This document shows positions 1,202 to 36,714 of a stretch of DNA of 37,406 nt, one piece after another. Source of the stretch: a virus. Taxonomy: Duplodnaviria > Heunggongvirae > Uroviricota > Caudoviricetes. A model generated the notes under the pieces. The model was not told the DNA's origin, searched no databases, and worked only from the letters and a program-made list of their open reading frames with translations. The stretch's first letter is position 1. Every line of letters starts with the position of its first letter. The position numbers and the translations under genes were made by a program. The DNA lies in IMG/VR virus record IMGVR_UViG_2778261667_000012, positions 1 to 37,406 of that record; one strand, written 5' to 3'.

Positions 1202-2239
1202 TTAACTACCCTCTAAAATCCCCACTTTGCCTCCAAAGTGTGGACACAATGTGGACATTCCTACAAGAGGATTATAATTCACTGCATCCAATAAATAATC
1301 AGGTGCAAAATGAGCATATGTCATTGTTTGTGAAATATCTGCGTGACCAAGAATTCTTTGTAACGCAATTATATTCCCGCCCTTCATCATAAAATGAGTA
1401 GCAAACGTATGACGCAATGCATGAGCTGCCTGACCATCAGGTAAATTAGGTTTTGCCTCTTTCATTTTTAAACGAAAAGTTTTGTAACTCACACGAAAAA
1501 GTCGACCAGATTCTCGATGCCTTACAATATTTACAACCTCCTCTGAAATGGGAACAACTCGTCGGTCGCCATTTTTTGTAAGCGTAAATATCACCCTATT
1601 ACCCACAATATTTTCCGCTTTGAGCTGATAAGCCTCACCCCACCTCGCACCAGTTGCAAGCAAGAGAACAGCAATCCGGAAATAATCACCAGTACATAAG
1701 GATAATAACCGCTTAACCTCAGACTCGGTAAAGTAAGACATCTCAGTTTTTGGCTCTTTTAAAGCAGATATTGCCTCTACAGGATTATCCCCATGAAACT
1801 CATCGATCTCAGCCATCGCCTTAAACATACCGCTCAGAGCAAAAAGATCATGGTTAATCGTTGAAGCCTTTATACCTTGCCCCAATCTATATGCCCGGTA
1901 TTCGATAAGGCATCGACCATCAATCTGGTAAATCATGGGATCCCCCATATCCTGGCAAATACAGCTTAACGCACTAAGCCTACGATTAGCGTAGTTCTTA
2001 TTACGTCCAATGAGCTGCCACCACAAAGCGATAAACTCACTCAGTCGCCGCTTGTCTGCAGGACGACTCAGGTAGTCATGGTTCTGATACTTTGCAATGA
2101 TGCTTCGTTCAAAAGCATGCGCCTCCGCTTTTCTCTCAAACTTCCGCCGGATACGCTTTCCGTCGCGCCCGCGCGGCCTTACATCCACTTCATAGCGACC
2201 ATCTTCGAGCTTCTTAACAGACACAAGAAGCCCCTCCAA
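1202..2239 (-). CDS. int: Phage tyrosine integrase
   Basis: 345-aa ORF with tyrosine-recombinase C-terminal motifs (ATGARWGEA, HALRHTFATH, LGHADISQTMTYAH). Lies next to the repressor as in the P2 C-int arrangement. Confidence 0.9.
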   Translation of the reverse strand: MEGLLVSVKKLEDGRYEVDVRPRGRDGKRIRRKFERKAEAHAFERSIIAKYQNHDYLSRPADKRRLSEFIALWWQLIGRNKNYANRRLSALSCICQDMGDPMIYQIDGRCLIEYRAYRLGQGIKASTINHDLFALSGMFKAMAEIDEFHGDNPVEAISALKEPKTEMSYFTESEVKRLLSLCTGDYFRIAVLLLATGARWGEAYQLKAENIVGNRVIFTLTKNGDRRVVPISEEVVNIVRHRESGRLFRVSYKTFRLKMKEAKPNLPDGQAAHALRHTFATHFMMKGGNIIALQRILGHADISQTMTYAHFAPDYLLDAVNYNPLVGMSTLCPHFGGKVGILEGS

Positions 2240-2293: not shown

Positions 2294-2593
2294 TTAACCA
2301 ATCTGTTTCCCGGAGGGGCCAGATTGTGTTGTCTCTGGCCCAGTGTGTGCAAGAGCCGGGGCGATCTGACCTCGGCTAGGGTCTATACGGTCATACATGA
2401 ACCAATCTTGATACTTATGGAAACGGGGATGACCAAAGAGTTTGATCGCAGCCTCCAATGACATTTTCGCCTTGCCTAGCTCATAACCGTTGTACGTACC
2501 ATAATTTACACCAATCAAATCAGCAACTTGCTTAGATTTAAGGCGTTCTGAATCTCGGATTAACTGTAGTTTTTCATGTTGTGGTATTGACAT
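2294..2593 (-). CDS. Immunity repressor, P2 C-like
   Basis: 99-aa ORF with an N-terminal HTH (SKQVADLIGVNYGTYNGYE) and a C-terminal ...SGQIAPALAH... segment resembling P2 C as recalled. Divergent from the early operon. Confidence 0.75.
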   Translation of the reverse strand: MSIPQHEKLQLIRDSERLKSKQVADLIGVNYGTYNGYELGKAKMSLEAAIKLFGHPRFHKYQDWFMYDRIDPSRGQIAPALAHTGPETTQSGPSGKQIG

Positions 2594-7795: not shown

Positions 7796-10618
7796 ATGAC
7801 GACAGAGTACATCAGGGACTGGCAACAACCGCGCCACGCAGTAGGACGTGAAGGAACGGAGATCCCCGCACCTGAATCCGCACTTTCCTCCTGGCTGGAT
7901 GCCTACCGGGCAGAGAACGAACGCCGCCAGGAAATGGCTGATGCGGCGTTCTCCGCCACACCGCTGGGCAACCTGATTAATAAAAGCCTGGACGCACAGG
8001 AAAAACAGGACAAAACCATCACACTGGCAGGAGACACCAGAAAGCAGGCACGCGGCGCGGTGGATGAAGCCATGGCCTCGCTGCGCCTGCTGCCGTCCTA
8101 TCTGCGCGATCCGCTTATTCGCCACCTCTCCTTCCTGCGCAAAAAACAGGAAGCTGATCGCCGGAAAGGCAAAAAGAGCTGGCAGGCTGAACGCTACGCG
8201 CGCGGAACCCTGCGCAAAATATTCGAACGCCTGGACCGCACCGACCACCGCTGGCTGACACCGGGTTATCGCTCCCTTGCCGGACACGAACGCCTGGATG
8301 ATTTGCTTTACCTCCCGCAGCTCAACAAACACCAGATACAGACGCTGGCCACCATGACGGCGGCGATGTTCAGCAGCACCTTCGAAAAACTCTGCGATGG
8401 CTTTGGCGCGACTGATGGCGAGCTGACCATGGATGTAACGCTGAAGGCGTATCAGATGCTGGCCCGCATGGCGTTACACCTGCACGCCATGCCTCCGCAT
8501 TATGACGCACTGACAACAGACAAAGACCGGAGGAACGAACCGGACACAGAACTGCTGCCGGGTGCAATCCTTCGCCTGACCTGTGCGGAATGGTGGAAAC
8601 GCAAACTGTGGCTGTTACGTTGCGAGTGGAGAGAAGAACAACTCCGCGCCGCCTGTCTGGTTTCCAGAAAAACATCGCCTTATCTGAGCCAGGACGCGTT
8701 AAGTGAGTTTCGCGCACAGCGCGAGAAAACACGCGATTTCCTGAAAAGTTTCATGCTGGAAAACGAAGACGGGTTCACGATTGATCTCGAGACAGTGTAT
8801 TACGCAGGAGTAAGTAACCCGGTTCACCGTAAGGCAGAAATGATGGCCACCATGAAGGGGCTGGAACTTCTGGCCGAAGCCCGTGGCGACAAAGCGGTGT
8901 TTCTGACTGTCACCTGCCCGTCAAAATACCACGCCACAACAGAGAACGGTCATCCGAATCCCAAATGGAACGGGGCCACCATGCGCGACTCCAGCGATTA
9001 CCTGGTTAACACGTTTTTTGCGGCGGTCCGCAAAAAACTGAACCGCGACGGCCTGCGCTGGTATGGCATCCGCACGGTGGAGCCTCACCATGACGGCACC
9101 GTGCACTGGCATATGATGGTCTTTGCTCATCCGGAAGAAATCGACGGCATCGTGGCCATCACCCGCGATATTGCCATTCAGGAAGACCGCCACGAGCTGG
9201 GTGATGACATAACTCCGCGTTTTAAGGCGGAGTACGTCGACGGCTCAAAAGGCACGCCAACCAGCTACATCGCCACCTACATCGGAAAGAACCTGGACAG
9301 CCGCGCCGTGGATGGCATCGACCCGAAAACGGGCAAGCCACGCGTTGACCACGAAACTGGAAAATCAATGACCGAGAGCGTGGAGCGCGCCATCGGCTGG
9401 GCGCGCCTTCACCGTGTCCGCCAGTTCCAGTTCTTTGGTATCCCCTCCCGTCAGGTGTGGCGTGAACTGCGCCGCCTTGCCAGCCAGATGGCACGCAACC
9501 CGGAAGGCCCACAACGGCTGAAGGATGATGCAATGGATGCGGTACTCGCTGCCGCTGATGCCGGGTGTTTTGCCACCTACATTGAAAAACAGGGCGGCGT
9601 ACTTGTTCCACGCAAGGACTACCTGATTCGCACCGCCTACGACCTCGCAGATGAGCTGAACGATTACGGCGAACAGAGCGTACAGATTTACGGGATCTGG
9701 TCGCCGCTCATCGGGGAATCCTCCCGCGTGTGCACGCACCCGGATAACTGGAAACTGGTAAGACGTAAACCTGAAGCAGAAGACAGCGTCCGCGAAAATG
9801 GTTTTGACCTTCAGGGCGGCCCTGCCGCCCCTTGGACTCGTGGCAATAACTGTCCCCGTGTACAGGAAACGGACAACAACGGGACAGAACAGCCGGAAGA
9901 ACGGCCAGCACCGTGGCCGCAGCTTCCTGACGGCGTTGATGTGGATGAATGGATGCGCTCACTGAAACGGCACAAACGCCGGGCGCTGATGCGTTCGCTG
10001 CGTGACAAACAGGCAAAAAACAGCAGTGATGAAATGCAGAACTGGTCACAGAGCCGCAAACAGCCACAGCCTTTGCCTGATAACCACGAGTTACTCGCTA
10101 AAGAATGGCGGGAATCTGCCGAATCTCTCGGCCTGCATATCGGTGAACAGCAGATGCAGCACCTGTTACGGGGCGGCAGCCTGTACGTTGACGGCAGCAT
10201 CATTGCACCGCAGGGATATGAAATTGTACGTAAACCGGATACCCGCCAGGACAGCCGAATCACGCAGCTCTGGCAACGCCTGAGCCGTAACCACGGCGTA
10301 AGCAGCACGGAGATCCGCCATAACCCGGTCGCCAGCTATCTGGAACAACTAGGGGCATCAGACCCTGAAGCCGCCGCACGCCTGGCATCCACACTTCAGC
10401 AAGACCAGAACACCATGAAAACCCCCGTTACCGTGCTTTCTGACATGCTGCGCGCCATCCGCGACGCAGAGCACGCACAGAGAATCAGTGAAACCACTGA
10501 ACGCGCCCACCGCAAAGCAGACCTGCTGCGGGGTAGCCTGACCAGTGGAAACAAAAAACAGACAGAAACGGGATTCACAAATCCCGTAAATGAGCAAAAA
10601 ACGTGCCGCGATATATGA
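7796..10618 (+). CDS. Replication initiation endonuclease (P2 gpA-like, rolling-circle)
   Basis: 940-aa ORF at the end of the early operon. Contains a VHWHMMVF HUH-type motif, and overall it matches the P2/186 A family as recalled; it has a C-terminal extension relative to P2 A. Confidence 0.8.
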   Translation: MTTEYIRDWQQPRHAVGREGTEIPAPESALSSWLDAYRAENERRQEMADAAFSATPLGNLINKSLDAQEKQDKTITLAGDTRKQARGAVDEAMASLRLLPSYLRDPLIRHLSFLRKKQEADRRKGKKSWQAERYARGTLRKIFERLDRTDHRWLTPGYRSLAGHERLDDLLYLPQLNKHQIQTLATMTAAMFSSTFEKLCDGFGATDGELTMDVTLKAYQMLARMALHLHAMPPHYDALTTDKDRRNEPDTELLPGAILRLTCAEWWKRKLWLLRCEWREEQLRAACLVSRKTSPYLSQDALSEFRAQREKTRDFLKSFMLENEDGFTIDLETVYYAGVSNPVHRKAEMMATMKGLELLAEARGDKAVFLTVTCPSKYHATTENGHPNPKWNGATMRDSSDYLVNTFFAAVRKKLNRDGLRWYGIRTVEPHHDGTVHWHMMVFAHPEEIDGIVAITRDIAIQEDRHELGDDITPRFKAEYVDGSKGTPTSYIATYIGKNLDSRAVDGIDPKTGKPRVDHETGKSMTESVERAIGWARLHRVRQFQFFGIPSRQVWRELRRLASQMARNPEGPQRLKDDAMDAVLAAADAGCFATYIEKQGGVLVPRKDYLIRTAYDLADELNDYGEQSVQIYGIWSPLIGESSRVCTHPDNWKLVRRKPEAEDSVRENGFDLQGGPAAPWTRGNNCPRVQETDNNGTEQPEERPAPWPQLPDGVDVDEWMRSLKRHKRRALMRSLRDKQAKNSSDEMQNWSQSRKQPQPLPDNHELLAKEWRESAESLGLHIGEQQMQHLLRGGSLYVDGSIIAPQGYEIVRKPDTRQDSRITQLWQRLSRNHGVSSTEIRHNPVASYLEQLGASDPEAAARLASTLQQDQNTMKTPVTVLSDMLRAIRDAEHAQRISETTERAHRKADLLRGSLTSGNKKQTETGFTNPVNEQKTCRDI

Positions 10619-10694: not shown

Positions 10695-11654
10695 ATGAAA
10701 ATTTGTATCGACGACGGCTCCACCAACATCAAGCTGGCATGGACTGAGAACGGCGAACGCCGCAACGCCATCAGCCCGAACAGCTTCAAGTCGGAATGGT
10801 CTGCGCCGTTCGGTGGCACGCAGCCCGCGAACTACATGCTTGATGGCGTGCGCTATGGTTTTGATCCGGTCAGCGACCGCTTTGTCCAGACGACCGACAC
10901 GCAATACCAGTACAGCGATGTGAATGTCATTGCCATTCATCATGCGCTGGTCAAATCAGGCATCACGCCACAGGAGGTGGATGTGGTTGTCACCCTGCCA
11001 CTGAGCGAGTATTTCGACACAAACGCACAGCCGGACATGGCCAACATCAACCGCAAAAAAGCGAACGTTATGCGCCCGGTGGAGTACCAGAACGGCGAGG
11101 CATTCACTATCCGTAACGTGCGGGTTATGCCTGAATCCATTCCGGCTGGCTTTAAAGCACTGGCTGACATGAGTCCGTTTGAATCCCTGCTGATTGTGGA
11201 TTTAGGCGGAACCACGCTGGATGTGGCAAAGGTTCAGGGACAACTGGCAGGTATCAGCCAGGTGTTTTGCGATCCACACGTAGGCGTTTCCCTGATGGCC
11301 GATGCCGTGCTGTCGGTGATGGGCACTAACGGTATGCGCACCAGTCACCACATCGCCAATACCATTATCGAACATCGCCATGATGAAGCCTGGCTGCGCC
11401 AGCACATCCACAATGACGCGCATTACGACAGCCTGATGGCGGTTATTCGTGAAAAGGAAGAAACACTGAAACAACGTGTGATCCGTGCGCTGGCTGGTTT
11501 TTCCGGTTACGGGCGGGTGATGGTTGTCGGTGGAGGGGCGGAGATTGTGGCACCCGCTATCCGCGAAGCCTGCGGAGTTAATGCGACTTTCATCGCGGAC
11601 GGGGTGCCACAGTTTGCTCTGGTTAATGGGCTGTACGCAATGGATAAGGAGTAA
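10695..11654 (+). CDS. parM: Actin-like plasmid segregation ATPase ParM/StbA
   Basis: 319-aa ORF. N-terminus MKICIDDGSTNIKLAW… and motifs …QYSDVNV…, …VMPESIPAG…, …LIVDLGGTTLD…, …VMVVGGGAE… match R1 ParM closely as recalled. Confidence 0.9.
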   Translation: MKICIDDGSTNIKLAWTENGERRNAISPNSFKSEWSAPFGGTQPANYMLDGVRYGFDPVSDRFVQTTDTQYQYSDVNVIAIHHALVKSGITPQEVDVVVTLPLSEYFDTNAQPDMANINRKKANVMRPVEYQNGEAFTIRNVRVMPESIPAGFKALADMSPFESLLIVDLGGTTLDVAKVQGQLAGISQVFCDPHVGVSLMADAVLSVMGTNGMRTSHHIANTIIEHRHDEAWLRQHIHNDAHYDSLMAVIREKEETLKQRVIRALAGFSGYGRVMVVGGGAEIVAPAIREACGVNATFIADGVPQFALVNGLYAMDKE

Positions 11655-11658
11655 ATCA

Positions 11659-11973
11659 ATGACGACACCAACCAGACGAATAAGTTTCTATCTGAAGCCC
11701 GCCGTCGTCAAGAGCGAACGGGAGGCGTGCAGTTACCTCGACAGCCTGCCAGCCTCCGAACGCAGCCGTGCACAACGCGCGGCCTTTCTGGCGGGACTGG
11801 CACTCATAAAACGCGCCCCCGCACTGGCGTACTCGCTGGCAGAATGGTCGAGCGATGAAATCCGGTTACCCCCACAGCTGGCGCTCCCGGAGAAACCGGC
11901 ACAACCAGCAACGAAGAACGACAACGCTGCACAGCAGATGAAAAAGAACATTCAGGCTTTTTTTCCTGAGTAG
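11659..11973 (+). CDS. parR: ParR-like centromere-binding protein (start revised from the track's 11524)
   Basis: ATG at 11659 with an AAGGA RBS, 4 nt after the parM stop. …SLPASERSRAQRAAFLAGLAL… resembles the R1 ParR ribbon-helix-helix region as recalled. Confidence 0.7.
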   Translation: MTTPTRRISFYLKPAVVKSEREACSYLDSLPASERSRAQRAAFLAGLALIKRAPALAYSLAEWSSDEIRLPPQLALPEKPAQPATKNDNAAQQMKKNIQAFFPE

Positions 11974-11982
11974 CAAAAAGAT

Positions 11983-12021
11983 AAACTCAACGAGGCGACA
12001 CGGAATCGCCTTGTTGAGTTT
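11983..12021. other. Strong hairpin (16-bp stem) between parR and the ClpX-ZBD gene
   Basis: aaactcaacgaggcga-cacggaa-tcgccttgttgagttt read directly; no T-tract after it, so terminator function is uncertain. Confidence 0.3.
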
Positions 12022-12044
12022 ATACACTGAAAGGGCTGTTGATA

Positions 12045-12416
12045 ATGAAAGAACTGAATAAAAGCAAAATTATATCCATCATTTCTGAAATGGAAGACAT
12101 TATTAATCGTGAAAACATGACATCAGAACAATTACTGAGTTGTGCAATTATTATTGATGAGCGCAATAAAAAAATTCAAAGACTGGCATCAGGGCGATCC
12201 CTGCGCCTGAAAGAGCAACACTTAACTTCATGCAATTCGCAATATCGGGACGGTAAAAAACTATATTGTTCATTTTGCGGAAAATACCAGACTGAAGTGG
12301 AGAGGCTCATTGCAGGGCCTTCTGTTTATATATGCGATGAATGTGTTGATTTGTGTGTGGATATTATTAATGAGGGCAAATCAGACGCCGGAGATAAAAA
12401 CAACAATACAAATTAA
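12045..12416 (+). CDS. Stand-alone ClpX N-terminal zinc-binding-domain protein with an unknown about 70-aa N-terminal domain
   Basis: C-terminal …[39 protein letters not shown]… is near-identical to the ClpX ZBD (Cys4 ligands present), but there is no AAA+ domain. The gene is markedly AT-rich. Start taken at the ATG at 12045 (the track's 12039 is a TTG). Confidence 0.7.
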
Positions 12417-12421
12417 GAAAA

Positions 12422-12462
12422 CCCGGAACGGGTGCGCAAATTCTTTGCGCGCCCGTTCCGGG
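12422..12462. terminator. Intrinsic terminator hairpin, mainly for the minus-strand late transcript
   Basis: About 18-bp GC-rich stem (cccggaacgggtgcgcaaa / ttgcgcgcccgttccggg) with an A-tract on the plus side, giving a U-tract on the minus strand. Confidence 0.5.
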
Positions 12463-12699
12463 TTGGACAAGCGAAGCGCGTCAGTCGCCGTAGCAGGGTG
12501 AATCCACATCGCAAATACGTTTATCGCTGAATTTAAGTTCATCAAACATTGCTTCTCGCTTGCAGACTGTATTTAATATTTTGGGGGTTCAGAGGCGGCT
12601 CCCCAAAAAAGTTGATACCGCCTAGTTGGTCACTTCGTCGTCAGACTGGGACTCCAACCACGCCAACTGAGAGGTTGGCACAATCTTCTCCCAAAAAAG

Positions 12700-12960
12700 C
12701 TACGACCCCGTCTGCAACAATTCCAGCGCCATCTGTTTTTCTTCCGGACGCATCCGCTCAATCAACAGCTTTAACACACCATTCTCCAGCCCGCTGGGCA
12801 CCAGTGTGTGCGAGTAGGTCAGATTCATCACCCAGGTATGTCCGCACTCGAGACGGGTGCAACGGTAATACACATCAGCAAACTGATCGGTTTTCCAGGC
12901 TGTTTTCTCAATCACTGCATGTGCACCGCAGCAATGACACCGCGCCTTCTGTCTGCGCAT
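12700..12960 (-). CDS. ogr: Ogr/Delta-family zinc-finger late-gene activator (start taken at the internal Met)
   Basis: …CHCCGAHAV…YRCTRLECGHTW… has the Cys4 pattern and size (about 86 aa) of P2 Ogr-type activators. Here it lies downstream of the portal gene rather than near int. Confidence 0.65.
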   Translation of the reverse strand: MRRQKARCHCCGAHAVIEKTAWKTDQFADVYYRCTRLECGHTWVMNLTYSHTLVPSGLENGVLKLLIERMRPEEKQMALELLQTGS

Positions 12961-13025
12961 TTTCCACCTCCCGGAACAGCGTTTTACTGCCGCCGATTTT
13001 ACCCGCTCTTTCCCCATACCGCACA

Positions 13026-14060
13026 TCACTCCATGGGTTCATCAAAATCAAGAATAAATTTCACCTCCCCCAGTCGTCTGATATCCGGGTCGCTGTTGAT
13101 CCCCTCCATAATCAGGCGACGCATCGGGATAACCTCATCCCTGTAATATGCCTCGCGGGATTTCAGCGGATCACCAAGCCCGGCCGTATTTGCGGGGATG
13201 ATGCCGGCAAGTCCGGGTGGGAAACGGTGCGCAACGAGCTGATCCTGGGCACTGATGGTTTTTATATTCAGAAACTCATCTTTTGTACCTGAATCCCCGA
13301 TAGGGATCACCTTAACGCCTTCTTTGTCTCCGCCCGGTATATTGATAAACATGGATTTAAAATTGCCCGCCCCTTTTGACGCCTCTATCTTTTTACGGAA
13401 TTCCGCCTCGAGCTCGGGATCCATGTCCGGGTCAGTGGAATACAGGATATAACCAAGATGTGCGCCGTTCTTGTAATACTTGCGGCGAAAGCGGGTGGCA
13501 TCCACATTCAGCATGGCGGATTCCATCCCGTGAATATAATCCGGGACACCGTAAACCTGCTGTTGCGGGTCATAAATGGCCACGAACACCACTTCGCCTG
13601 GCTGATAAACGAGATCTTCCAGTGCTGCCTGCACAATCACCGTGCCACCCTCGTTGTTACGCCGCAGGTACAGAGAAGGTAACGTATGCAGGCGCACCAC
13701 TCGACCGAAGCCATTGCGCACTTTAAGCAACCCCATATCCCCGAATATCAGCAGATTGGTTACTGCTGCCGCCATGGCGGCGTGTGTCATACCACCACCA
13801 CCCCGAAAACCCTGCATGATCATATTGACGCGCGCACGCAATACCGCGCCGTGATACGGTGCGATATTGGACAACATGGCGAGATCCATGCGCTCAATTG
13901 GCGGCGTGTACCAGCCGTTATAGCCATCCCAGAGCGAGCCGTAATAACAGCCCCATGCAGCGACCGGTTCCGGGTCACCAAATTCAATAAACGTCATTTT
14001 GCTGGCTGTTTTTTTTGCCACGCCATCGTGTAACACGGGGTATTTTTTCTTTTTACTCAT
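13026..14060 (-). CDS. Portal protein (P2 gpQ-like)
   Basis: 344-aa ORF, the same length as P2 Q, adjacent to and overlapping the large terminase gene. Confidence 0.85.
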   Translation of the reverse strand: MSKKKKYPVLHDGVAKKTASKMTFIEFGDPEPVAAWGCYYGSLWDGYNGWYTPPIERMDLAMLSNIAPYHGAVLRARVNMIMQGFRGGGGMTHAAMAAAVTNLLIFGDMGLLKVRNGFGRVVRLHTLPSLYLRRNNEGGTVIVQAALEDLVYQPGEVVFVAIYDPQQQVYGVPDYIHGMESAMLNVDATRFRRKYYKNGAHLGYILYSTDPDMDPELEAEFRKKIEASKGAGNFKSMFINIPGGDKEGVKVIPIGDSGTKDEFLNIKTISAQDQLVAHRFPPGLAGIIPANTAGLGDPLKSREAYYRDEVIPMRRLIMEGINSDPDIRRLGEVKFILDFDEPME

Positions 14061-15840
14061 CTGACAGGATCCATGTTGATTTGCGCTTGTGCTTATAGTT
14101 CAGGGGTTCATTACTTGCGGCATGAGCGATGGCAAAGAAGATGTCAGCGTGCCCGGTTTCTTCGCTACGTTCGGCGGTGAAAGTGACTTTATTGCCACTG
14201 TTGGTGGATTCCTGACGAATGGCCAGGAACGATGCCGGAATGTCCGTGGCTTCCTCATCCCACTCAATACGGTTGGCGTAAATCAGATCCAGCATCTTCA
14301 TCACCAGGCGGTTTTTGGATTCCACGCTGTAATGAATGGCCACTGTTTCACGGCGGGCAAATCCCTGAACCAGCTCAAAGACACCGTAGCCAAGACCGGT
14401 GACATCAATGCCGATAAACGTCATGTTATAGCGTGCCTTAATGCTGCGGATACGCTCTGCCATAAACTGGAATGACATGCTGCGCCAGTGGTGTTTTTCC
14501 AGCACGCGGAATCGTTCTGCCGCAACCAGCGGCGGTGCCAGCACAACAAATGTGGCGTTATCGCCGGAGCGCGCAGGGTCAAAGCCGCCCCACACCTCAC
14601 GGTTACCAAACGGCATGGGCTCTTCCGGGTGAAAATCCTCCCACGTACTGACATCAACACCACAACGCACAAGATCATCGAATTTAAAGACGCTCTCTTT
14701 GTCATCCACAAACACACACATAAACAGCATATTGAACGCTGTTTCGTTGTATCGCTCGCGCAGCTCGTTGATATCAGCAAGGTTAAAGCCGCCGGCAATG
14801 GCATCTTCCAGCGTAACCACATAGCGCCACTGACCATCCGGACATTCACGCCCGCCATCGCGCAGCTCATCAAAGGATGGAAACTCAACCCCTTTTCGTT
14901 TCGGATCGCCTTTGCGCCATTCATCGCCAGACCAGAACGGGTAACCCTGGTGTGTTTTGGATGACGGCGTGGAGAAATAGGTAATGCGCCAGTGTTTATG
15001 GGTGGCCATCCCTGATGCCACTTCATTGAGACGGCGAAAACCGGGGATCCACAGGTATTCATCAATATACAGGTGGCCGCTGTTTGACTGCGCTGTGTTA
15101 CTGTTGGTCGCCAGAAAATACAGTTCAGCCAGGTTGCTTAACTTAACCGGATTGCCTTTAATAGGAATGCCAAACTCTGTTTGTGCAATTTTTACAATAT
15201 AAGTACGGAACACTTCGGCCTGACGTTTTGATGCCGATAAAAATATCTGTGTGTCGCCGGTTAATACCGCATCTTCAAACGCCTCAAACGCGAAGTAATA
15301 CGTCGCCCCAATCTGGCGGGATTTAAGCAGATTGCGTACACGGCGGAATTTGTTTTCACGCAGGCGCAACTGATAAGCAAACAGTTTCTTCGTAAACGGC
15401 TCAAAACTTTCAGCAGTCAGTCCGGAAACGTCATTAGCTTTACGGGGGCGCTCTTTCTTGCCTGCACCTTTTTCTCCGCGTTCTTCTTTTCCATAACGGC
15501 CAGGCTGGGGAATGTCCACTCCCATTCGCGCAATCTCAGCCATTCGTTCCGTGTGCTTGTTTCTGACCGACATCAGTTTGACGTGATGACCAATCAGGCG
15601 ATCGAGCTCATCGTGTTCTTCCTGGGTCTTATGGTCACGTTCCGCCAGTACAGCGAGACGCCGGGCGATAACATCTTCCACGCCTTCCGTATTGAGCTGC
15701 GTGTACCACTCAAACTTTGTCGCCCAGTAATAAACAATTCGCGGGCTGTTCAGTCCGAGTTTCTTTTGTATTTCTTTTGGTGTGTGCCTTTTCAGATAGA
15801 GCGATTTTGCAGCAGCAATTACCTCATCAGAATACGCCAT
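14053..15840 (-). CDS. Terminase ATPase/large subunit (P2 gpP-like)
   Basis: 595-aa ORF, divergent from the scaffold gene as in P2; size and order match P2 P. Confidence 0.85.
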   Translation of the reverse strand: MAYSDEVIAAAKSLYLKRHTPKEIQKKLGLNSPRIVYYWATKFEWYTQLNTEGVEDVIARRLAVLAERDHKTQEEHDELDRLIGHHVKLMSVRNKHTERMAEIARMGVDIPQPGRYGKEERGEKGAGKKERPRKANDVSGLTAESFEPFTKKLFAYQLRLRENKFRRVRNLLKSRQIGATYYFAFEAFEDAVLTGDTQIFLSASKRQAEVFRTYIVKIAQTEFGIPIKGNPVKLSNLAELYFLATNSNTAQSNSGHLYIDEYLWIPGFRRLNEVASGMATHKHWRITYFSTPSSKTHQGYPFWSGDEWRKGDPKRKGVEFPSFDELRDGGRECPDGQWRYVVTLEDAIAGGFNLADINELRERYNETAFNMLFMCVFVDDKESVFKFDDLVRCGVDVSTWEDFHPEEPMPFGNREVWGGFDPARSGDNATFVVLAPPLVAAERFRVLEKHHWRSMSFQFMAERIRSIKARYNMTFIGIDVTGLGYGVFELVQGFARRETVAIHYSVESKNRLVMKMLDLIYANRIEWDEEATDIPASFLAIRQESTNSGNKVTFTAERSEETGHADIFFAIAHAASNEPLNYKHKRKSTWILSDE

Positions 15841-33909: not shown

Positions 33910-35603
33910 AATTGATACAACGCTGCATGATTAATGGCGAACGGGTGGAAATTGCCGATATAAACCTTGTTCTTACCCTGAATGCTGCCGGTCGTGGCTT
34001 CATTTCTGTTAACAATCTGTCACCCGAACACAGCCTTGCCGGCGCAATGGTACAAATTGATCTCGGCCGTGACGGTGAAGCATGGCGCTATTTCTCCGGC
34101 TACATTGAGCGCGATCAACCTGCTGAAAATGGCTCACGTCGCCTTTTTATCCGTGAAGCAGCTGCTGTGCTGGATTTTGATTTCCCTTGCTCCATGCAAC
34201 ACCCGACGTTGCGGGGGGTACTCGATAATCTGGGGCGACAAAGCGGTATCGTTTTTATCACTCCGGATGCGGATTATGCCAGTATACCAACTCCCTACAT
34301 CACCCACAGCGGCAGCGGAGCACAACTGCTCAGCCAACTGGGGCGAGCATTCAGTATCAACGATTACGTCTGGCACCCTATGCCGGACGGTTCTGTATTT
34401 GTGGGAAGCGCAGCTGATTCACGATTTGCCAGTATTACAATGCCGGATATTCCGCAACAGTACACACTCGGGCAAAGCGGCGGAAACAGCATCGACATCA
34501 TGTTTATGGAAACTGTGCGACCGGGCGTGAACCTACCGGCCGGGCGCATTACCCGTGTAGCCCTCAACAACGAGAAAATGACCCTGACATGGGAGCGCCT
34601 TACCGCCACGGGTAGCCCTGTTTCCAAATCACCATTACGCAGACAAATGGAAACACAGTTCCCGGAACTGGTCAGCGGTACGCTACATACCCGGCTGGCG
34701 CGCGTCATTGCACCAACGGAGCCCGCCACCCTGGGCGATGTGGCCGACAGTTTCCGCCCACGCTACGCCGTCGATGTGCAGTTGCTTGATGAGAACGGCA
34801 ACGATAAAAGCGATACGCCCGTTTACCCGGCAGTACCGCTCCCCGTCCCCATGGCTGGCAGTGAGGCGGGATGTTTTGCCTACCCGCCGGCAGGCACCAT
34901 CGTGGAAATATCCAACATTGAAGGACGACCGGATAAACCTGTCATCAGGCAAATCTTACCCGCTGGTCATAACCTGCCTGATGTAAAGCCCGGCGAACAA
35001 TTGCAACAACAGCGCGCAGAAGTGTTTCAGCGTGTCACGACTGACGGAAGCTGGCACAGAGAAACCGACCAGCAAATCAGGGAGCATTCAGCCAGGCGAA
35101 CCATTAACAGCGATCAGGAAGAACGCACAACAACAACCAGAACAACAACAGTACAGGCAAACGACATAACCAGCGTTCTGGGAACCAGCAAGCTGATGAC
35201 AGGTCAGACAGAACACATTACTACTGGCCATTATGCGATCGCAGCCGGTGAGCATATCCAGATGGTAGCGCAGGATTTGCTGACTAAACTCAAAGGGGCG
35301 ACATCCACCATCGAGCATAACCTCACCGAAAACGTGGGAGGCCGCAGAACATGCCGGGCGGACGGCGGCCTGGAATTTACCGCCCCGACTGTATTTATTG
35401 GGCGCGGTGGCTCACGGGAAAAATCCGGACTTAATCTGCTGACGTTGTTGATTGATATTCTGGATCTGGTTCAGTTGCTGGCCACACACACTGCAAACCA
35501 CACCCACAGCAACACTGGCGCACCAACAAACAGCAGCGAACTTGCCGCAGACGCCCAACAGGCTACGAGCCTGCGCGAAAAATACGGCGACCTTATCGCC
35601 TAA
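33906..35603 (+). CDS. Putative baseplate hub/central spike protein (gpD/gpV-like fusion?)
   Basis: 565 aa with a beta-helix-like repetitive C-terminal region and a His-rich apex (…THTANHTHSNTGAP…) reminiscent of P2 gpV-type spike tips. Confidence 0.45.
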   Translation: MKLIQRCMINGERVEIADINLVLTLNAAGRGFISVNNLSPEHSLAGAMVQIDLGRDGEAWRYFSGYIERDQPAENGSRRLFIREAAAVLDFDFPCSMQHPTLRGVLDNLGRQSGIVFITPDADYASIPTPYITHSGSGAQLLSQLGRAFSINDYVWHPMPDGSVFVGSAADSRFASITMPDIPQQYTLGQSGGNSIDIMFMETVRPGVNLPAGRITRVALNNEKMTLTWERLTATGSPVSKSPLRRQMETQFPELVSGTLHTRLARVIAPTEPATLGDVADSFRPRYAVDVQLLDENGNDKSDTPVYPAVPLPVPMAGSEAGCFAYPPAGTIVEISNIEGRPDKPVIRQILPAGHNLPDVKPGEQLQQQRAEVFQRVTTDGSWHRETDQQIREHSARRTINSDQEERTTTTRTTTVQANDITSVLGTSKLMTGQTEHITTGHYAIAAGEHIQMVAQDLLTKLKGATSTIEHNLTENVGGRRTCRADGGLEFTAPTVFIGRGGSREKSGLNLLTLLIDILDLVQLLATHTANHTHSNTGAPTNSSELAADAQQATSLREKYGDLIA

Positions 35604-35945
35604 TCACCGGGCATAAAATCCACATAAACGCCCCATCACGCAACGCACGGTTCAGGCCGTGCGTTTTCATATCTGCCACCTGATTAATGCGTTCTGCGTG
35701 CCATTCCGGCGCTGTATGCGCACACCACGTAAACGGTGTGACGTAAAGCGTGAGGTGACGTAAACCGCGCTACCCCCTCCAACCCGCGGGTTTTGTGTCG
35801 AAACACTTTTTCAGTTTTCTGCCGTGCAAAAATGACCGTCAGCCCGCGCTGCGACTGAGGGAAAGGCGAGGATCTGAAATTTCACGTTTTGAAATTTTTT
35901 GCAGTTTTCAGAGAGGTTTTTACGATCGCACAAATGGTAGGAGCA

Positions 35946-36083
35946 ATGAAACCGCATGATATTAAAAGAGTTTTCATACTTTACGCGAGACGAGAAACGA
36001 TCACGAAAGGATCGCATCAAAAAATCGTCAAACAACGAAGCCTGACGCAGCACGGCCTGCGTAAAATTAAGAGTCAAAATTAA
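35946..36083 (+). CDS. Small basic hypothetical ORF (45 aa)
   Basis: AGGAG 4-5 nt upstream of the ATG at 35946; translation MKPHDIKRVFILYARRETITKGSHQKIV…; low support. Confidence 0.2.
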   Translation: MKPHDIKRVFILYARRETITKGSHQKIVKQRSLTQHGLRKIKSQN

Positions 36084-36433
36084 ACTGAAAAAAGGATCAA
36101 TACCGCGCCTCGATCACGCATGACGATCTACACAGCAACAGGGCGAAAAAAAACCGGCGCGAACGCCGGCGGAAGCATGTATCAAATGCGTGACTGAATA
36201 ATGTCTACGGTCGGGAATTTTACATCAGAAGGCTGATAAGTCTCAACGGATTGAAACAAGGGAAAAAACCAGGCTAGAATTCGCGCGGGTGCCTTTCGGC
36301 TGATGGCTGGAGGGAATACCTGAAGGCCGGATGTGGAAAGGCCCCGGAAAACATTTTCTGTTTAACCGAGGCCCTAACCGCATTACCTTCGCAAGTGATA
36401 GGTTAGCGCCTCTCCAATAAAGGAGCAAGCGCT

Positions 36434-36574
36434 ATGTCGCAAAAATCGCTTATGGCCATCACGTTCTGCGTGACGGCAATCCTCATCATCTGGATGCTGC
36501 ACGGTTCGCTGTGTGAAATACGGATGAGCTTCTGGGGAGCGGAGTTTGCGGCGTTCTTACAGTGTAAACAGTAA
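36434..36574 (+). CDS. Hok/Gef-family type I toxin (46 aa), not in the ORF track
   Basis: AAGGAG RBS. Translation MSQKSLMAITFCVTAILIIWMLHGSLCEIRMSFWGAEFAAFLQCKQ has an N-terminal TM helix, the LCEIR motif and an E(V/F)AAF C-terminal motif typical of Hok proteins. A 9-bp-stem hairpin follows at about 36586-36607. Confidence 0.55.
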   Translation: MSQKSLMAITFCVTAILIIWMLHGSLCEIRMSFWGAEFAAFLQCKQ

Positions 36575-36714
36575 GGAAACCGCGACGGGGGAGCAATCCC
36601 CCGTCAATCGGTTGCTAAGGCAAGGTCGTAAAGGCACCCTATCTCACAGGCATGTCCCCACGGCGCAAATTTTGTCTCCCTTATGAATAGGGACGACATC
36701 TGCAGTTCGTCTAC

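Follow-up and report, generated by a model that had tools for sequence, protein, structure and literature searches.

A small phage gene joining a conserved helical domain to a ClpX-type zinc-binding domain without the AAA+ motor: a possible decoy of host ClpX

The window, i.e. the whole stretch of 37,406 nucleotides of the Caudoviricetes record IMGVR_UViG_2778261667_000012 analysed here, belongs to a P2-like prophage and contains a small, well-conserved gene in which a ClpX-type zinc-binding domain (ZBD) stands behind a helical N-terminal domain. The gene order is gpA (7796-10618), parM, a parR-like gene and the ZBD gene, followed on the minus strand by an ogr-like gene and the portal gene. 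The integrase and repressor genes point leftward and the gpA-parMR genes rightward; the ZBD gene is co-oriented with the latter and is the last gene of the early rightward block. The features of the region are the following.

10695-11973, plus strand: upstream neighbours, ParM (10695-11654) and a ParR-like Plasmid_stab_B protein (11659-11973)
11981-12023, plus strand: hairpin with an 18-bp stem, 3' of the parR stop codon and 5' of the ZBD gene (-27.3 kcal/mol, z=-6.0)
12030-12035, plus strand: Shine-Dalgarno-like AAAGGG, 9 nt 5' of the ATG, read from the sequence
12045-12416, plus strand: coding sequence of the ZBD protein, 123 amino acids plus stop, member of phrog_6797 (open reading frame, conserved ATG, Pfam, PHROG and NCBIfam matches)
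12045-12200, plus strand: N-terminal domain, residues 1-52, predicted two-helix hairpin (helices 6-22 and 27-48, AF2)
12201-12257, plus strand: flexible linker, residues 53-71 (pLDDT, dN/dS)
12258-12380, plus strand: ClpX-type zinc-binding domain, residues 72-112 (Pfam PF06689, identity to ClpX, predicted fold)
12267-12269, 12276-12278, 12333-12335 and 12342-12344, plus strand: cysteine ligands C75, C78, C97 and C100
12381-12413, plus strand: polar, acidic C-terminal tail, predicted to be disordered
12420-12464, both strands: 21-bp GC-rich hairpin directly 3' of the stop codon (RNA fold)
12700-14060, minus strand: downstream neighbours, Ogr/Delta zinc-finger activator (12700-13029) and portal (13026-14060)

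The neighbouring genes place the ZBD gene in a known variable locus. ParM was identified by its match to Pfam StbA_N/ParM_N (E=1e-82), the ParR-like protein by Plasmid_stab_B (E=7e-25) and phrog_2515, partition protein, and the Ogr-like protein by Pfam Ogr_Delta; portal and terminase were called in a near-identical locus (L002). The gpA-gpQ hotspot of P2-like phages has its far boundary at the Ogr-like and portal genes; it adjoins cos, houses old and tin in P2, and carries mostly anti-phage defence genes (PMC9122126). The original prediction had placed the gene between gpA and the ogr-portal block, at the old/tin site of P2, and both the gene order and the published description of the hotspot agree with this. 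Loci with zf-C4_ClpX are listed in the hotspot Table S5 of Rousset et al. 2022, where the combination 'StbA + Plasmid_stab_B + zf-C4_ClpX' is recurrent and many StbA + Plasmid_stab_B loci occur without zf-C4_ClpX; in the supplement of that study ClpX appears in Table S5 only and not among the evaluated systems of Table S2 (PMC9122126). A 2026 preprint on P2/P4 hotspots, with its supplements, does not mention ClpX.

Within the window the gene is set apart by a hairpin on either side; parR precedes it, and ogr is encoded on the opposite strand. The upstream hairpin is conserved in L002 and L007 and degenerate in L006 and L010; it is a candidate attenuator or terminator, not an established one. 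The downstream hairpin, probably a bidirectional terminator, is very stable on either strand (-43.4 kcal/mol on the plus and -39.4 kcal/mol on the minus strand, z about -7), is followed on the minus strand by UUUUCUUAAUUU, and is kept 3' of the homologue in L006. A consensus scan for promoters yielded no more sites than shuffled sequence does, and the single one, at 12019-12046, is weak. This site was judged non-functional because it overlaps the start codon and would cut off the conserved N-terminus. An Rfam search for RNA elements in and around the gene gave sub-threshold noise only. A conserved, co-oriented adjacent partner gene, as in type II toxin-antitoxin or other two-gene systems, was found neither in the window nor across the lineages.

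The open reading frame on the plus strand spans 12039-12416, and these had been the bounds of the gene in the original prediction. Frame and stop codon are retained here, and the start is moved to the ATG at 12045. The homologues have TTA or TAA in place of the TTG at 12039, which was therefore rejected as the start, and they keep both the ATG and a Shine-Dalgarno sequence (GAAAGGG, GAAAAGG or GAAGAGG). For the E. coli homologue P0004, the start that PGAP places at Met25 was likewise rejected: the full 123-codon frame is intact in P0004, and the subfamilies share conserved protein sequence over residues 1-24. The gene had also been described as AT-rich, and so it is, with a GC content of 0.36 and a GC3 of 0.33 against 0.52 for the whole window.

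The identity of the C-terminal half is clear. Residues 74-110 match positions 2-39 of the 39 positions of Pfam PF06689 zf-C4_ClpX (E=2e-19, 69.7 bits, gathering cutoff 27 bits). Among PDB entries, those of the E. coli ClpX ZBD match best (1OVX and 2DS5-8, E=7e-19), and Listeria and Neisseria ClpX score lower. The statement in the original prediction that the last 45 or so residues are nearly identical to ClpX was slightly generous, as 32 of 40 residues (80%) are identical to E. coli ClpX; it also ran the domain to the end of the protein, which in fact lies 11 residues past the ZBD, at the end of the polar tail. The four cysteine ligands that it had claimed are all present: C75, C78, C97 and C100 align with C14, C17, C36 and C39 of ClpX and are invariant in the family. 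The equivalent of ClpX F16 is also invariant and that of I46 is I or V across phrog_6797. The residues of the hydrophobic core and of the patch are all retained, and the differences from ClpX lie at polar positions (S20Y, H22T, R25E, K26R, N44V, R48N). In the AF2 model the ZBD has a pLDDT of 84-88 and superposes on 2DS5, 2DS6, 2DS7 and 2DS8 in Foldseek with TM scores of 0.88-0.92 and an rmsd of 0.5-0.9 A, i.e. it is predicted to adopt the solved fold of the ClpX ZBD. The conserved F16, I46 and hydrophobic core suggest that the phage ZBD may bind zinc, dimerise constitutively and bind XB-type peptides. The absence of an AAA+ unfoldase, claimed earlier, holds as well: the ClpX models TIGR00382 and NF003745 of NCBIfam reach 50.6-50.9 bits against cutoffs of 359-371, and the match is confined to profile positions 4-51 of about 416.

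The N-terminal half is unrelated to ClpX, and its earlier description as an unknown domain fused to a ZBD is still apt. No credible Pfam family was found for residues 1-70, and Foldseek searches against PDB and BFVD gave matches via the ZBD only. AF2 predicts a two-helix hairpin (pLDDT 94-97) with broad hydrophobic faces; E17, E23, R40 and G50 are invariant in the family alignment. A profile of the N-domain alone, searched against 1.84 billion proteins, retrieved 12 representatives, which are ZBD fusions or copies truncated before the ZBD, the sole exception being P0131, a 467-aa low-complexity repeat protein. Conspicuously low pLDDT values, i.e. below 50, are seen in the linker (residues 55-69), whose length differs among subfamilies, and at the end of the tail (residues 117-123), which is variable across the family. 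An SspB-like XB motif (LRVVK-like) was sought at the C-terminus and is absent. The nearest XB-like string, LRLK, is found at residues 53-56 in the linker and is missing from the P88 and D6 subtypes. An auto-inhibitory XB-like motif in the linker is thus unsupported, since LRLK is not conserved and the linker evolves neutrally.

The protein matches phrog_6797 over its full length (E=8.1e-23, residues 1-114 against profile positions 5-105 of 107) and is, by this alignment, a divergent member of that catalogued, uncharacterised phage family. The original prediction knew of no characterised phage protein of this architecture; our literature search likewise returned no study characterising any phage stand-alone ZBD, but the protein is not an orphan. 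Homologues aligned over both domains include P88 gp19 (YP_009113062) and D6 orf93 (YP_009914770), both mis-annotated as 'carboxylate-amine ligase'; members in E. coli prophages and phage-plasmids bear the RefSeq name 'ClpX C4-type zinc finger protein'. The family resides in P2-like prophages and in P1/D6-like and SSU5-like phage-plasmids, and across these three phage lineages the two-domain architecture is kept at 25-40% identity. These catalogued proteins share this architecture with the window protein but only 36-41% of their residues, and the linker of the window protein is about 10-15 residues longer. Of 5426 complete E. coli genomes, 707 match the DNA of the P88 gp19-gp20 pair, 72 of them carrying at least 80% of it. 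The subtype of the window is rare: a megablast search found no match in 5426 complete E. coli genomes, only 4 close clusters were found among 5.8 billion proteins, and a scan of IMG/VR with the single protein gave only two close loci.

The gene contexts of the relatives are diverse. The ZBD gene follows parR directly here, in P88 (i.e. in the same slot) and in L007. In P88 gp19 overlaps the downstream Ea22-like gp20, whereas the window gene stands alone between its hairpins. In L008 and L009 the ZBD gene comes after gpA and an unrelated 140-aa open reading frame, without ParMR. In L006 and L010 a Fic pair takes the place of parM and of the 5' part of parR, and the ZBD gene is intact and under selection. 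In D6 and pECOH89 the gene does not adjoin partition genes, and D6-like and SSU5-like phage-plasmids carry it within arrays of small early accessory genes. Because the contexts differ in this way, the idea that the gene must go with ParMR or with an Ea22-like gene was rejected as a rule.

Selection was estimated separately for the parts of the gene. At a dS of about 0.8-1.2, dN/dS is 0.08 for the N-domain and 0.06 for the ZBD; for the linker it is about 1.0-1.2. The value for the whole gene is 0.16, against homologues of 76-78% identity. In other words, strong purifying selection acts on both domains and not on the neutrally evolving linker, as is typical of two functional modules joined by a tether. 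A DNA alignment with host clpX, called for along with the original prediction, excludes a recent clpX fragment or truncated pseudogene. Over the ZBD, only 72% of the nucleotides agree with E. coli clpX; 19 of 40 third codon positions match, as do 16 of the 32 codons of identical residues, i.e. third positions are saturated. The upstream sequence has no similarity to the region upstream of clpX. The missing megablast match in the 5426 E. coli genomes and the low dN/dS of both domains also speak against such a fragment. Unlike the ZBD of ClpX, the phage ZBD is not joined to an AAA+ ring but forms the C-terminal half of a small protein, and it is encoded by an AT-rich gene whose synonymous divergence from clpX is saturated.

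It is conspicuous that identity to E. coli ClpX is 53-87%, and mostly 76-87%, for the ZBDs of the family, which are on average only 65% identical among themselves, and that the N-domains are only 24-38% identical between subfamilies. This pattern indicates that the ZBD is held near the host sequence, as would be expected of a mimic. Proteins with two tandem ZBDs in one chain and no AAA+ module also exist, so the free ZBD dimer seems to recur as a unit. Without a motor domain, the phage protein would most likely be a decoy that interferes with selective ClpXP proteolysis. Our preferred reading, to which we give a rough probability of 0.45, is that the gene encodes an oligomeric mimic of the ClpX N-domain that acts in trans and competes for ZBD-binding adaptors and substrates.

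According to this decoy model, the phage ZBD would dimerise as it does in ClpX, and the hydrophobic faces of the hairpin, which appear too broad to be buried in a monomer, would provide a second self-association interface. The resulting assembly would display two or more ZBD dimers, like the ClpX hexamer, and could compete with ClpX for peptides docking on the F16/I46 hydrophobic patch: the XB tail of SspB, RssB, lambda-O-type and MuA-type signals, UmuD and trigger factor. The outcome would be a selective damping of ZBD-dependent ClpXP proteolysis and remodelling, and pore-recognised substrates, e.g. those with ssrA-type tags, would be spared. In a variant of the model, the protein would form heterodimers with the ZBDs of newly made ClpX. 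The phage might benefit through stabilised phage or host proteins (sigmaS, labile antitoxins, replication or regulatory proteins) or through the exclusion of ClpX-requiring phages, e.g. Mu-like ones. We note that the function given here to the conserved N-domain is one that we infer entirely, and that the ZBD might be merely a generic zinc-dependent dimerisation module.

The decoy model has a precedent in vitro. The recombinant isolated ClpX ZBD was reportedly used as a competitor by Wojtyra et al. in 2003. When isolated E. coli ZBD is supplied in trans, it titrates the docking partner and thereby inhibits adaptor-dependent degradation, namely that of sigmaS mediated by RssB; SspB is a competitor for the ZBD site that RssB uses, and the XB consensus is LKxh (Micevski et al. 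2020, PMC7226468). Lambda-O, SspB, RssB and trigger factor all dock on the F16/I46 patch (PMC7804408). Like the isolated ZBD, the phage protein is free of the motor; the former is a laboratory construct, whereas the latter is a natural gene under selection with an extra conserved domain. The proposed logic would be analogous to that of the phage inhibitors of host AAA+ proteases, in which a small phage protein blunts a host ATP-dependent protease: T4 PinA and T7 gp4.5 act on Lon and lambda RexB on Clp, with the aim of protecting phage proteins or labile antitoxins (PMC10286901). The mechanism would differ in that a recognition domain is mimicked rather than the enzyme bound, and no sequence relationship is claimed. 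The predicted outcome would also overlap with that of IraP, IraM and IraD, i.e. RssB would be kept from delivering sigmaS to ClpXP; the Ira proteins, however, bind RssB via unrelated folds, and the phage protein would fill the ClpX-docking site of RssB by imitating ClpX. An anti-defence version of the decoy is limited by the fact that the CmdA antitoxin is recognised at the ClpX pore via a C-terminal AA degron (10.1101/2024.02.24.581848), because a ZBD decoy would not block such pore-recognised substrates.

The location in the hotspot invites a different reading, since the mostly anti-phage cargo favours a defence role over a decoy. The gene would then be an exclusion gene that acts not via host ClpXP: the ZBD would serve as a zinc-dependent dimerisation or sensor module for a protein of an invading phage, and the helical N-domain as effector or recruiter. 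The gene shares the cos-proximal locus with old, tin and many validated defence systems (PMC9122126), is an AT-rich, moron-like cassette flanked by hairpins, and its relatives adjoin typical hotspot content (the Fic pair or a DUF6338-like protein). We nevertheless consider this explanation unlikely. PADLOC-DB v2 gave no defence family match at E<=1 and no homology to known defence proteins; zf-C4_ClpX figures in the locus table of Rousset et al. and not among their tested systems; a 123-aa helical hairpin with a zinc ribbon has no recognisable effector; the D6-like and SSU5-like homologues lie in early accessory arrays, not in defence islands; and the tight conservation towards host ClpX would be left unexplained. 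A decoy could, moreover, itself exclude ClpX-dependent phages. The conserved, selected N-domain could instead bind a target that the ZBD attaches to ClpX, either as heterodimer partner of a ClpX ZBD or docked on the AAA+ ring, so that the target is degraded or remodelled. Two modules on a flexible leash do recall SspB, with its substrate-binding domain, linker and ClpX-binding module, and the different N-domains of other ZBD fusions (P0030, P0049, P0111) suggest swappable specificity modules. Such an adaptor or hijacker seems quite improbable to us, however, as known adaptors dock on the ZBD via short XB-type peptides and not via a ZBD of their own, a C-terminal XB motif is absent here and the linker LRLK is not conserved, the ClpX ZBDs are already paired as stable dimers and leave little room for a foreign one, and no target is identifiable.

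Two further explanations fare worse. The protein might be an accessory factor of the replication and partition module (gpA-ParM-ParR), e.g. a zinc-ribbon protein working with ParR/ParM or gpA, and its similarity to ClpX would then tell of the origin of the domain only. The position directly 3' of parR in the window, P88 and L007, the recurrent triplet in Table S5 and the presence of the family in phage-plasmids, which must partition, are compatible with this, but the loci without ParMR (L008, L009), those that keep an intact, selected ZBD gene after loss of parM and the 5' part of parR (L006, L010), the separate location in D6 and pECOH89, and the many StbA + Plasmid_stab_B loci of the hotspot that have no zf-C4_ClpX make it very unlikely. 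That the gene is a functionless, decaying remnant, i.e. a 5' fragment of clpX fused by chance to an open frame, is hardly credible. Truncated or frameshifted family copies do occur (P0121, P0122, P0127-P0129 and P0134), but the low dN/dS of both domains effectively refutes this explanation for the window gene, and the saturation of synonymous sites relative to clpX, the architecture kept in three lineages and the conserved start codon and Shine-Dalgarno sequence also speak against it.

Extending the decoy model from the gene to the family is a more tentative step. It is possible, if doubtful, that phrog_6797 is a new class of selective ClpXP modulators, i.e. self-assembling decoys of the ClpX N-domain by which three temperate lineages (P2-like, P1/D6-like and SSU5-like) would turn off adaptor- and N-domain-dependent proteolysis and leave bulk ssrA quality control intact. 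If so, sigmaS, labile antitoxins or phage regulators would be stabilised, or ClpX-dependent competitors such as Mu-like phages excluded.

The selectivity of enterobacterial ClpXP lies largely with the ZBD, on which SspB, RssB, UmuD, lambda-O and MuA dock. Were the phage ZBD only the dimerisation module of an unrelated effector, the interest of the gene would be modest. If the decoy model is true, this natural, transferable protein would be the first known viral mimic of the recognition domain of an AAA+ protease, and it would explain a gene of many E. coli prophages and phage-plasmids that is now mis-annotated. It would also provide a genetic tool for separating ZBD-dependent from pore-dependent functions of ClpXP in vivo, and would show whether the cargo of the P2 hotspot includes modulators of host physiology or counter-defence besides defence systems.

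The open reading frame claimed for positions 12039-12416 of the plus strand is present in the window. With the ATG at 12045 as its functional start, it encodes a protein of 123 amino acids with a ClpX-type zinc-binding domain (ZBD). This start is chosen because the ATG and a GAAAGGG-type Shine-Dalgarno sequence upstream of it are kept across homologous loci, whereas the TTG at 12039 is not; the TTG was rejected, as TTA or an in-frame TAA is found in its place. The gene is indeed AT-rich, as the original prediction had stated (GC 0.36 and GC3 0.33 versus a GC of 0.52 for the window). We note that P0004, a homologue from E. coli (AASDKV010000115.1, locus L007, 4489-4860), is annotated from Met25 and that its whole 123-codon frame is intact.

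Inserted beside glsA, the prophage in the window is P2-like and of the P88/Xuanwuvirus type. The left flank (1-1250) is glsA; against nearly all of 5423 E. coli genomes its identity is no higher than 80-90%, so the host is probably an enterobacterium other than typical E. coli. The last ~750 bases at the right end show only weak YdcA-like similarity, with no close E. coli match, and a Hok/Gef-family locus is seen near the prophage right end (about 35600-36650). The relevant features are as follows.

1202-2239, minus strand: integrase
2294-2593, minus strand: HTH repressor
7796-10618, plus strand: gpA, within the rightward early block
10695-11654, plus strand: ParM (StbA_N/ParM_N)
11659-11973, plus strand: ParR-like (Plasmid_stab_B), closing the rightward early block directly before the ZBD gene
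11981-12023: upstream hairpin, 18-bp stem, -27 kcal/mol, z=-6
12420-12464: downstream hairpin, 21-bp stem, -43 kcal/mol, z=-7
12700-13029, minus strand: Ogr-like, on the strand opposite to the ZBD gene
13026-14060, minus strand: portal
14053-15840, minus strand: terminase

The ZBD gene is located in the cos-proximal gpA-gpQ locus, which Rousset et al. 2022 defined as a hotspot whose cargo varies and is often anti-phage, and where P2 carries old and tin (PMC9122126). Table S5 of that work includes 'StbA + Plasmid_stab_B + zf-C4_ClpX' among the hotspot loci, and ClpX is absent from its table of tested systems (PMC9122126). The gene is flanked on both sides by strong hairpins; on the minus strand the downstream one is followed by a U-run, so that it is probably also the terminator of the ogr/late transcript. 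Between this hairpin and ogr lie ~235 bp of non-coding DNA (12465-12700) that are conserved in other P88-like phages, as seen from the match in phage Chuche, which has no ZBD gene; this stretch probably contains the cos region adjoining the hotspot. ParM and the ParR-like gene (10695-11973) form a complete type II partition cassette in an integrated P2-like prophage, directly behind replication gene A as in phage P88. The gpA homologue itself has 940 residues (761, 787 and 836 in related loci); its Phage_GPA domain spans residues 179-503 only, and the C-terminal ~440 residues are an extension without a Pfam match.

The zf-C4_ClpX domain occupies residues 74-110 (Pfam, E=2e-19), with C75, C78, C97 and C100 as zinc ligands by alignment, and 32 out of 40 aligned residues are identical to E. 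coli ClpX. The closest solved structures are the E. coli ClpX ZBDs 1OVX and 2DS5-8 (E=7e-19), and the Listeria and Neisseria ClpX entries score well below these. The AAA+ module is absent, i.e. the NCBIfam ClpX equivalogs reach 51 bits against cutoffs of 359-371 and match at profile positions 4-51 only. An AlphaFold2 model built on an 11-sequence family alignment starts with a hairpin of two helices, residues 6-22 and 27-48, predicted at pLDDT 94-97. Residues 55-69 form a linker predicted to be disordered, with a pLDDT under 50, and the ZBD that follows (pLDDT 84-88) superposes on 2DS5-2DS8 at 0.5-0.9 A. The hairpin fold has no match in PDB or BFVD. Both of its helices carry broad hydrophobic faces (stretches of 10 and 11 residues, respectively), from which we infer that the hairpin self-associates, e.g. 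as a four-helix bundle. The linker contains LRLKEQ (residues 53-58, window 12201-12218), whose LRLK loosely resembles both the XB tail of SspB (LRVVK) and LKxh, the consensus of ZBD-binding peptides. The string might be a peptide that docks on the protein itself or inhibits it; against this stand the neutral evolution of the linker and the lack of the motif in the P88 and D6 subtypes.

Is the gene a displaced piece of the host gene? A codon alignment of the ZBD region with E. coli clpX gives 72% identity; third positions agree in 19 of 40 cases, and the same codon is used for only 16 of the 32 identical residues. When the sequence 5' of the ZBD is compared with that upstream of clpX, its score does not exceed that of shuffled sequence. 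In comparison with the homologous loci L006 and L010 (76-78% identity, dS 0.8-1.2), the N-domain (residues 1-52) has a dN/dS of 0.08 and the ZBD one of 0.06, and in the linker the ratio is about 1. In other words, these ratios describe two domains kept by selection and joined via an unconstrained tether. The proposed alignment with the clpX 5' end thus speaks against a clpX fragment, and together with the low dN/dS it rules out a truncated clpX pseudogene; selection likewise refutes a decaying remnant, a reading we practically discount. Six family members (P0121, P0122, P0127, P0128, P0129 and P0134; 50-98 aa) are truncated or frameshifted behind the N-domain, reflecting either gene decay in some prophages or N-domain-only products.

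The architecture had been taken as unknown. The layout of N-domain and ZBD without AAA+ stands, but it is already catalogued, uncharacterised, as phrog_6797 ('unknown function'), which the protein matches over its full length (E=8e-23). P88 gp19 (NC_026014.1, 10195-10527), in the same slot behind parR, and D6 orf93 (NC_050154.1, 78777-79097) align over both domains at 36-41% identity, and both are misannotated as 'carboxylate--amine ligase'. The family also occurs on non-mobilizable E. coli plasmids of roughly 90-115 kb; those inspected are D6-like and SSU5-like phage-plasmids, on which RefSeq names it 'ClpX C4-type zinc finger protein'. Among 5426 complete E. coli genomes, 707 have DNA matching the P88 gp19-gp20 pair, and 72 of these carry at least 80% of it; megablast found the ZBD gene of the window in 0 of the 5426. 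The window subtype is rare: four close clusters (98%, 98%, 86% and 76% identity) among 5.8 billion proteins and two close loci in IMG/VR. A profile of the N-domain only returned 12 proteins among 1.84 billion representatives, 11 being ZBD fusions or truncated copies thereof and one a low-complexity match. The gene is a new, divergent variant, and the phage family it belongs to, catalogued but uncharacterised, is based on a well-known domain. A stand-alone ZBD as such would not startle a specialist, since AAA+-less ZBD proteins are common in metagenomes. In many of them two ClpX-type ZBDs stand in tandem on one chain (P0005-P0022, P0044, P0088 and P0120; metagenomic, bacterial), i.e. single-chain 'dimers', often with helical spacers, and in others a single ZBD is joined to unrelated N-domains (P0030, P0049 and P0111). 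Free ZBD proteins look like a large unexplored set.

Lambda-O, SspB, RssB and trigger factor all dock at one hydrophobic patch of the ZBD, F16/I46 in E. coli ClpX numbering (PMC7804408); an LKxh or XB-like motif is common to ZBD-binding peptides, and isolated ZBD in trans inhibits RssB-mediated sigmaS degradation (PMC7226468). Members of phrog_6797 all keep F16, have I or V at position 46 and retain the hydrophobic core; where they differ from ClpX, the positions are polar. It is conspicuous that most ZBDs of the family share 76-87% identity with E. coli ClpX versus a mean of 65% among themselves, and that the N-domains are only 24-38% identical between subfamilies. ZBDs nearer to ClpX than to each other, with drifted N-domains, are the pattern expected if the ZBD must imitate the host domain. 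Our preferred reading, at a probability of about 0.45, is therefore a protein that mimics the ClpX N-domain in trans. Such a protein would titrate the adaptors and substrates that dock on the ZBD or, alternatively, might heterodimerise with ClpX ZBDs; the hairpin, as a second self-association interface, would display several ZBD dimers together, as on the ClpX hexamer. Beyond the conservation of sequence and fold, this mechanism is what we infer. There are precedents: PinA, gp4.5 and RexB are phage proteins that interfere with AAA+ proteases of the host (PMC10286901). The C-terminal AA degron of the CmdA antitoxin is recognised at the ClpX pore (10.1101/2024.02.24.581848), and a ZBD decoy would leave degrons of this kind unblocked, which limits the model.

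The hotspot location would also suit an exclusion gene acting independently of ClpXP. We consider this unlikely, since PADLOC gives no match, the protein has no recognisable effector and its homologues in other elements lie among early genes. Somewhat less probable still is an adaptor or hijacker bringing a target to ClpX. No partner gene is conserved across the loci compared (the window, L002, L006-L010, P88, and D6-like and SSU5-like elements), and an accessory of gpA/ParMR, which we regard as improbable, is contradicted by relatives without ParMR (L008 and L009). P0001, at locus L002, has the layout of the window, and L007 has an extra 209-aa gene on the opposite strand. In L006 (301-1476) and L010 (2825-4000) an oppositely oriented Fic-domain gene and its 132-aa partner replace parM and the 5' half of parR, which shows remodelling of the hotspot by cassette replacement; the ZBD gene is retained there, and about 230 bp from the 3' end of parR remain upstream of it. 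Such survival speaks against a necessary tie to ParMR and suggests that the gene can be expressed alone.

In P88, D6-like and SSU5-like elements the phrog_6797 gene abuts or overlaps Ead/Ea22-like genes (phrog_368, 492, 250 and 660), and none flanks the ZBD gene in the window.

L001, 4264-4602: P88 gp20
L003, 3255-3923: D6 orf92
L016, 2528-3028 and 3743-4273: pECOH89 neighbours

This adjacency may reflect coupled translation with a functional partner, or no more than the abundance of Ea22-like genes in such arrays. The mimicry signature, together with the spread over three temperate-phage lineages, makes the ZBD gene a worthwhile target.
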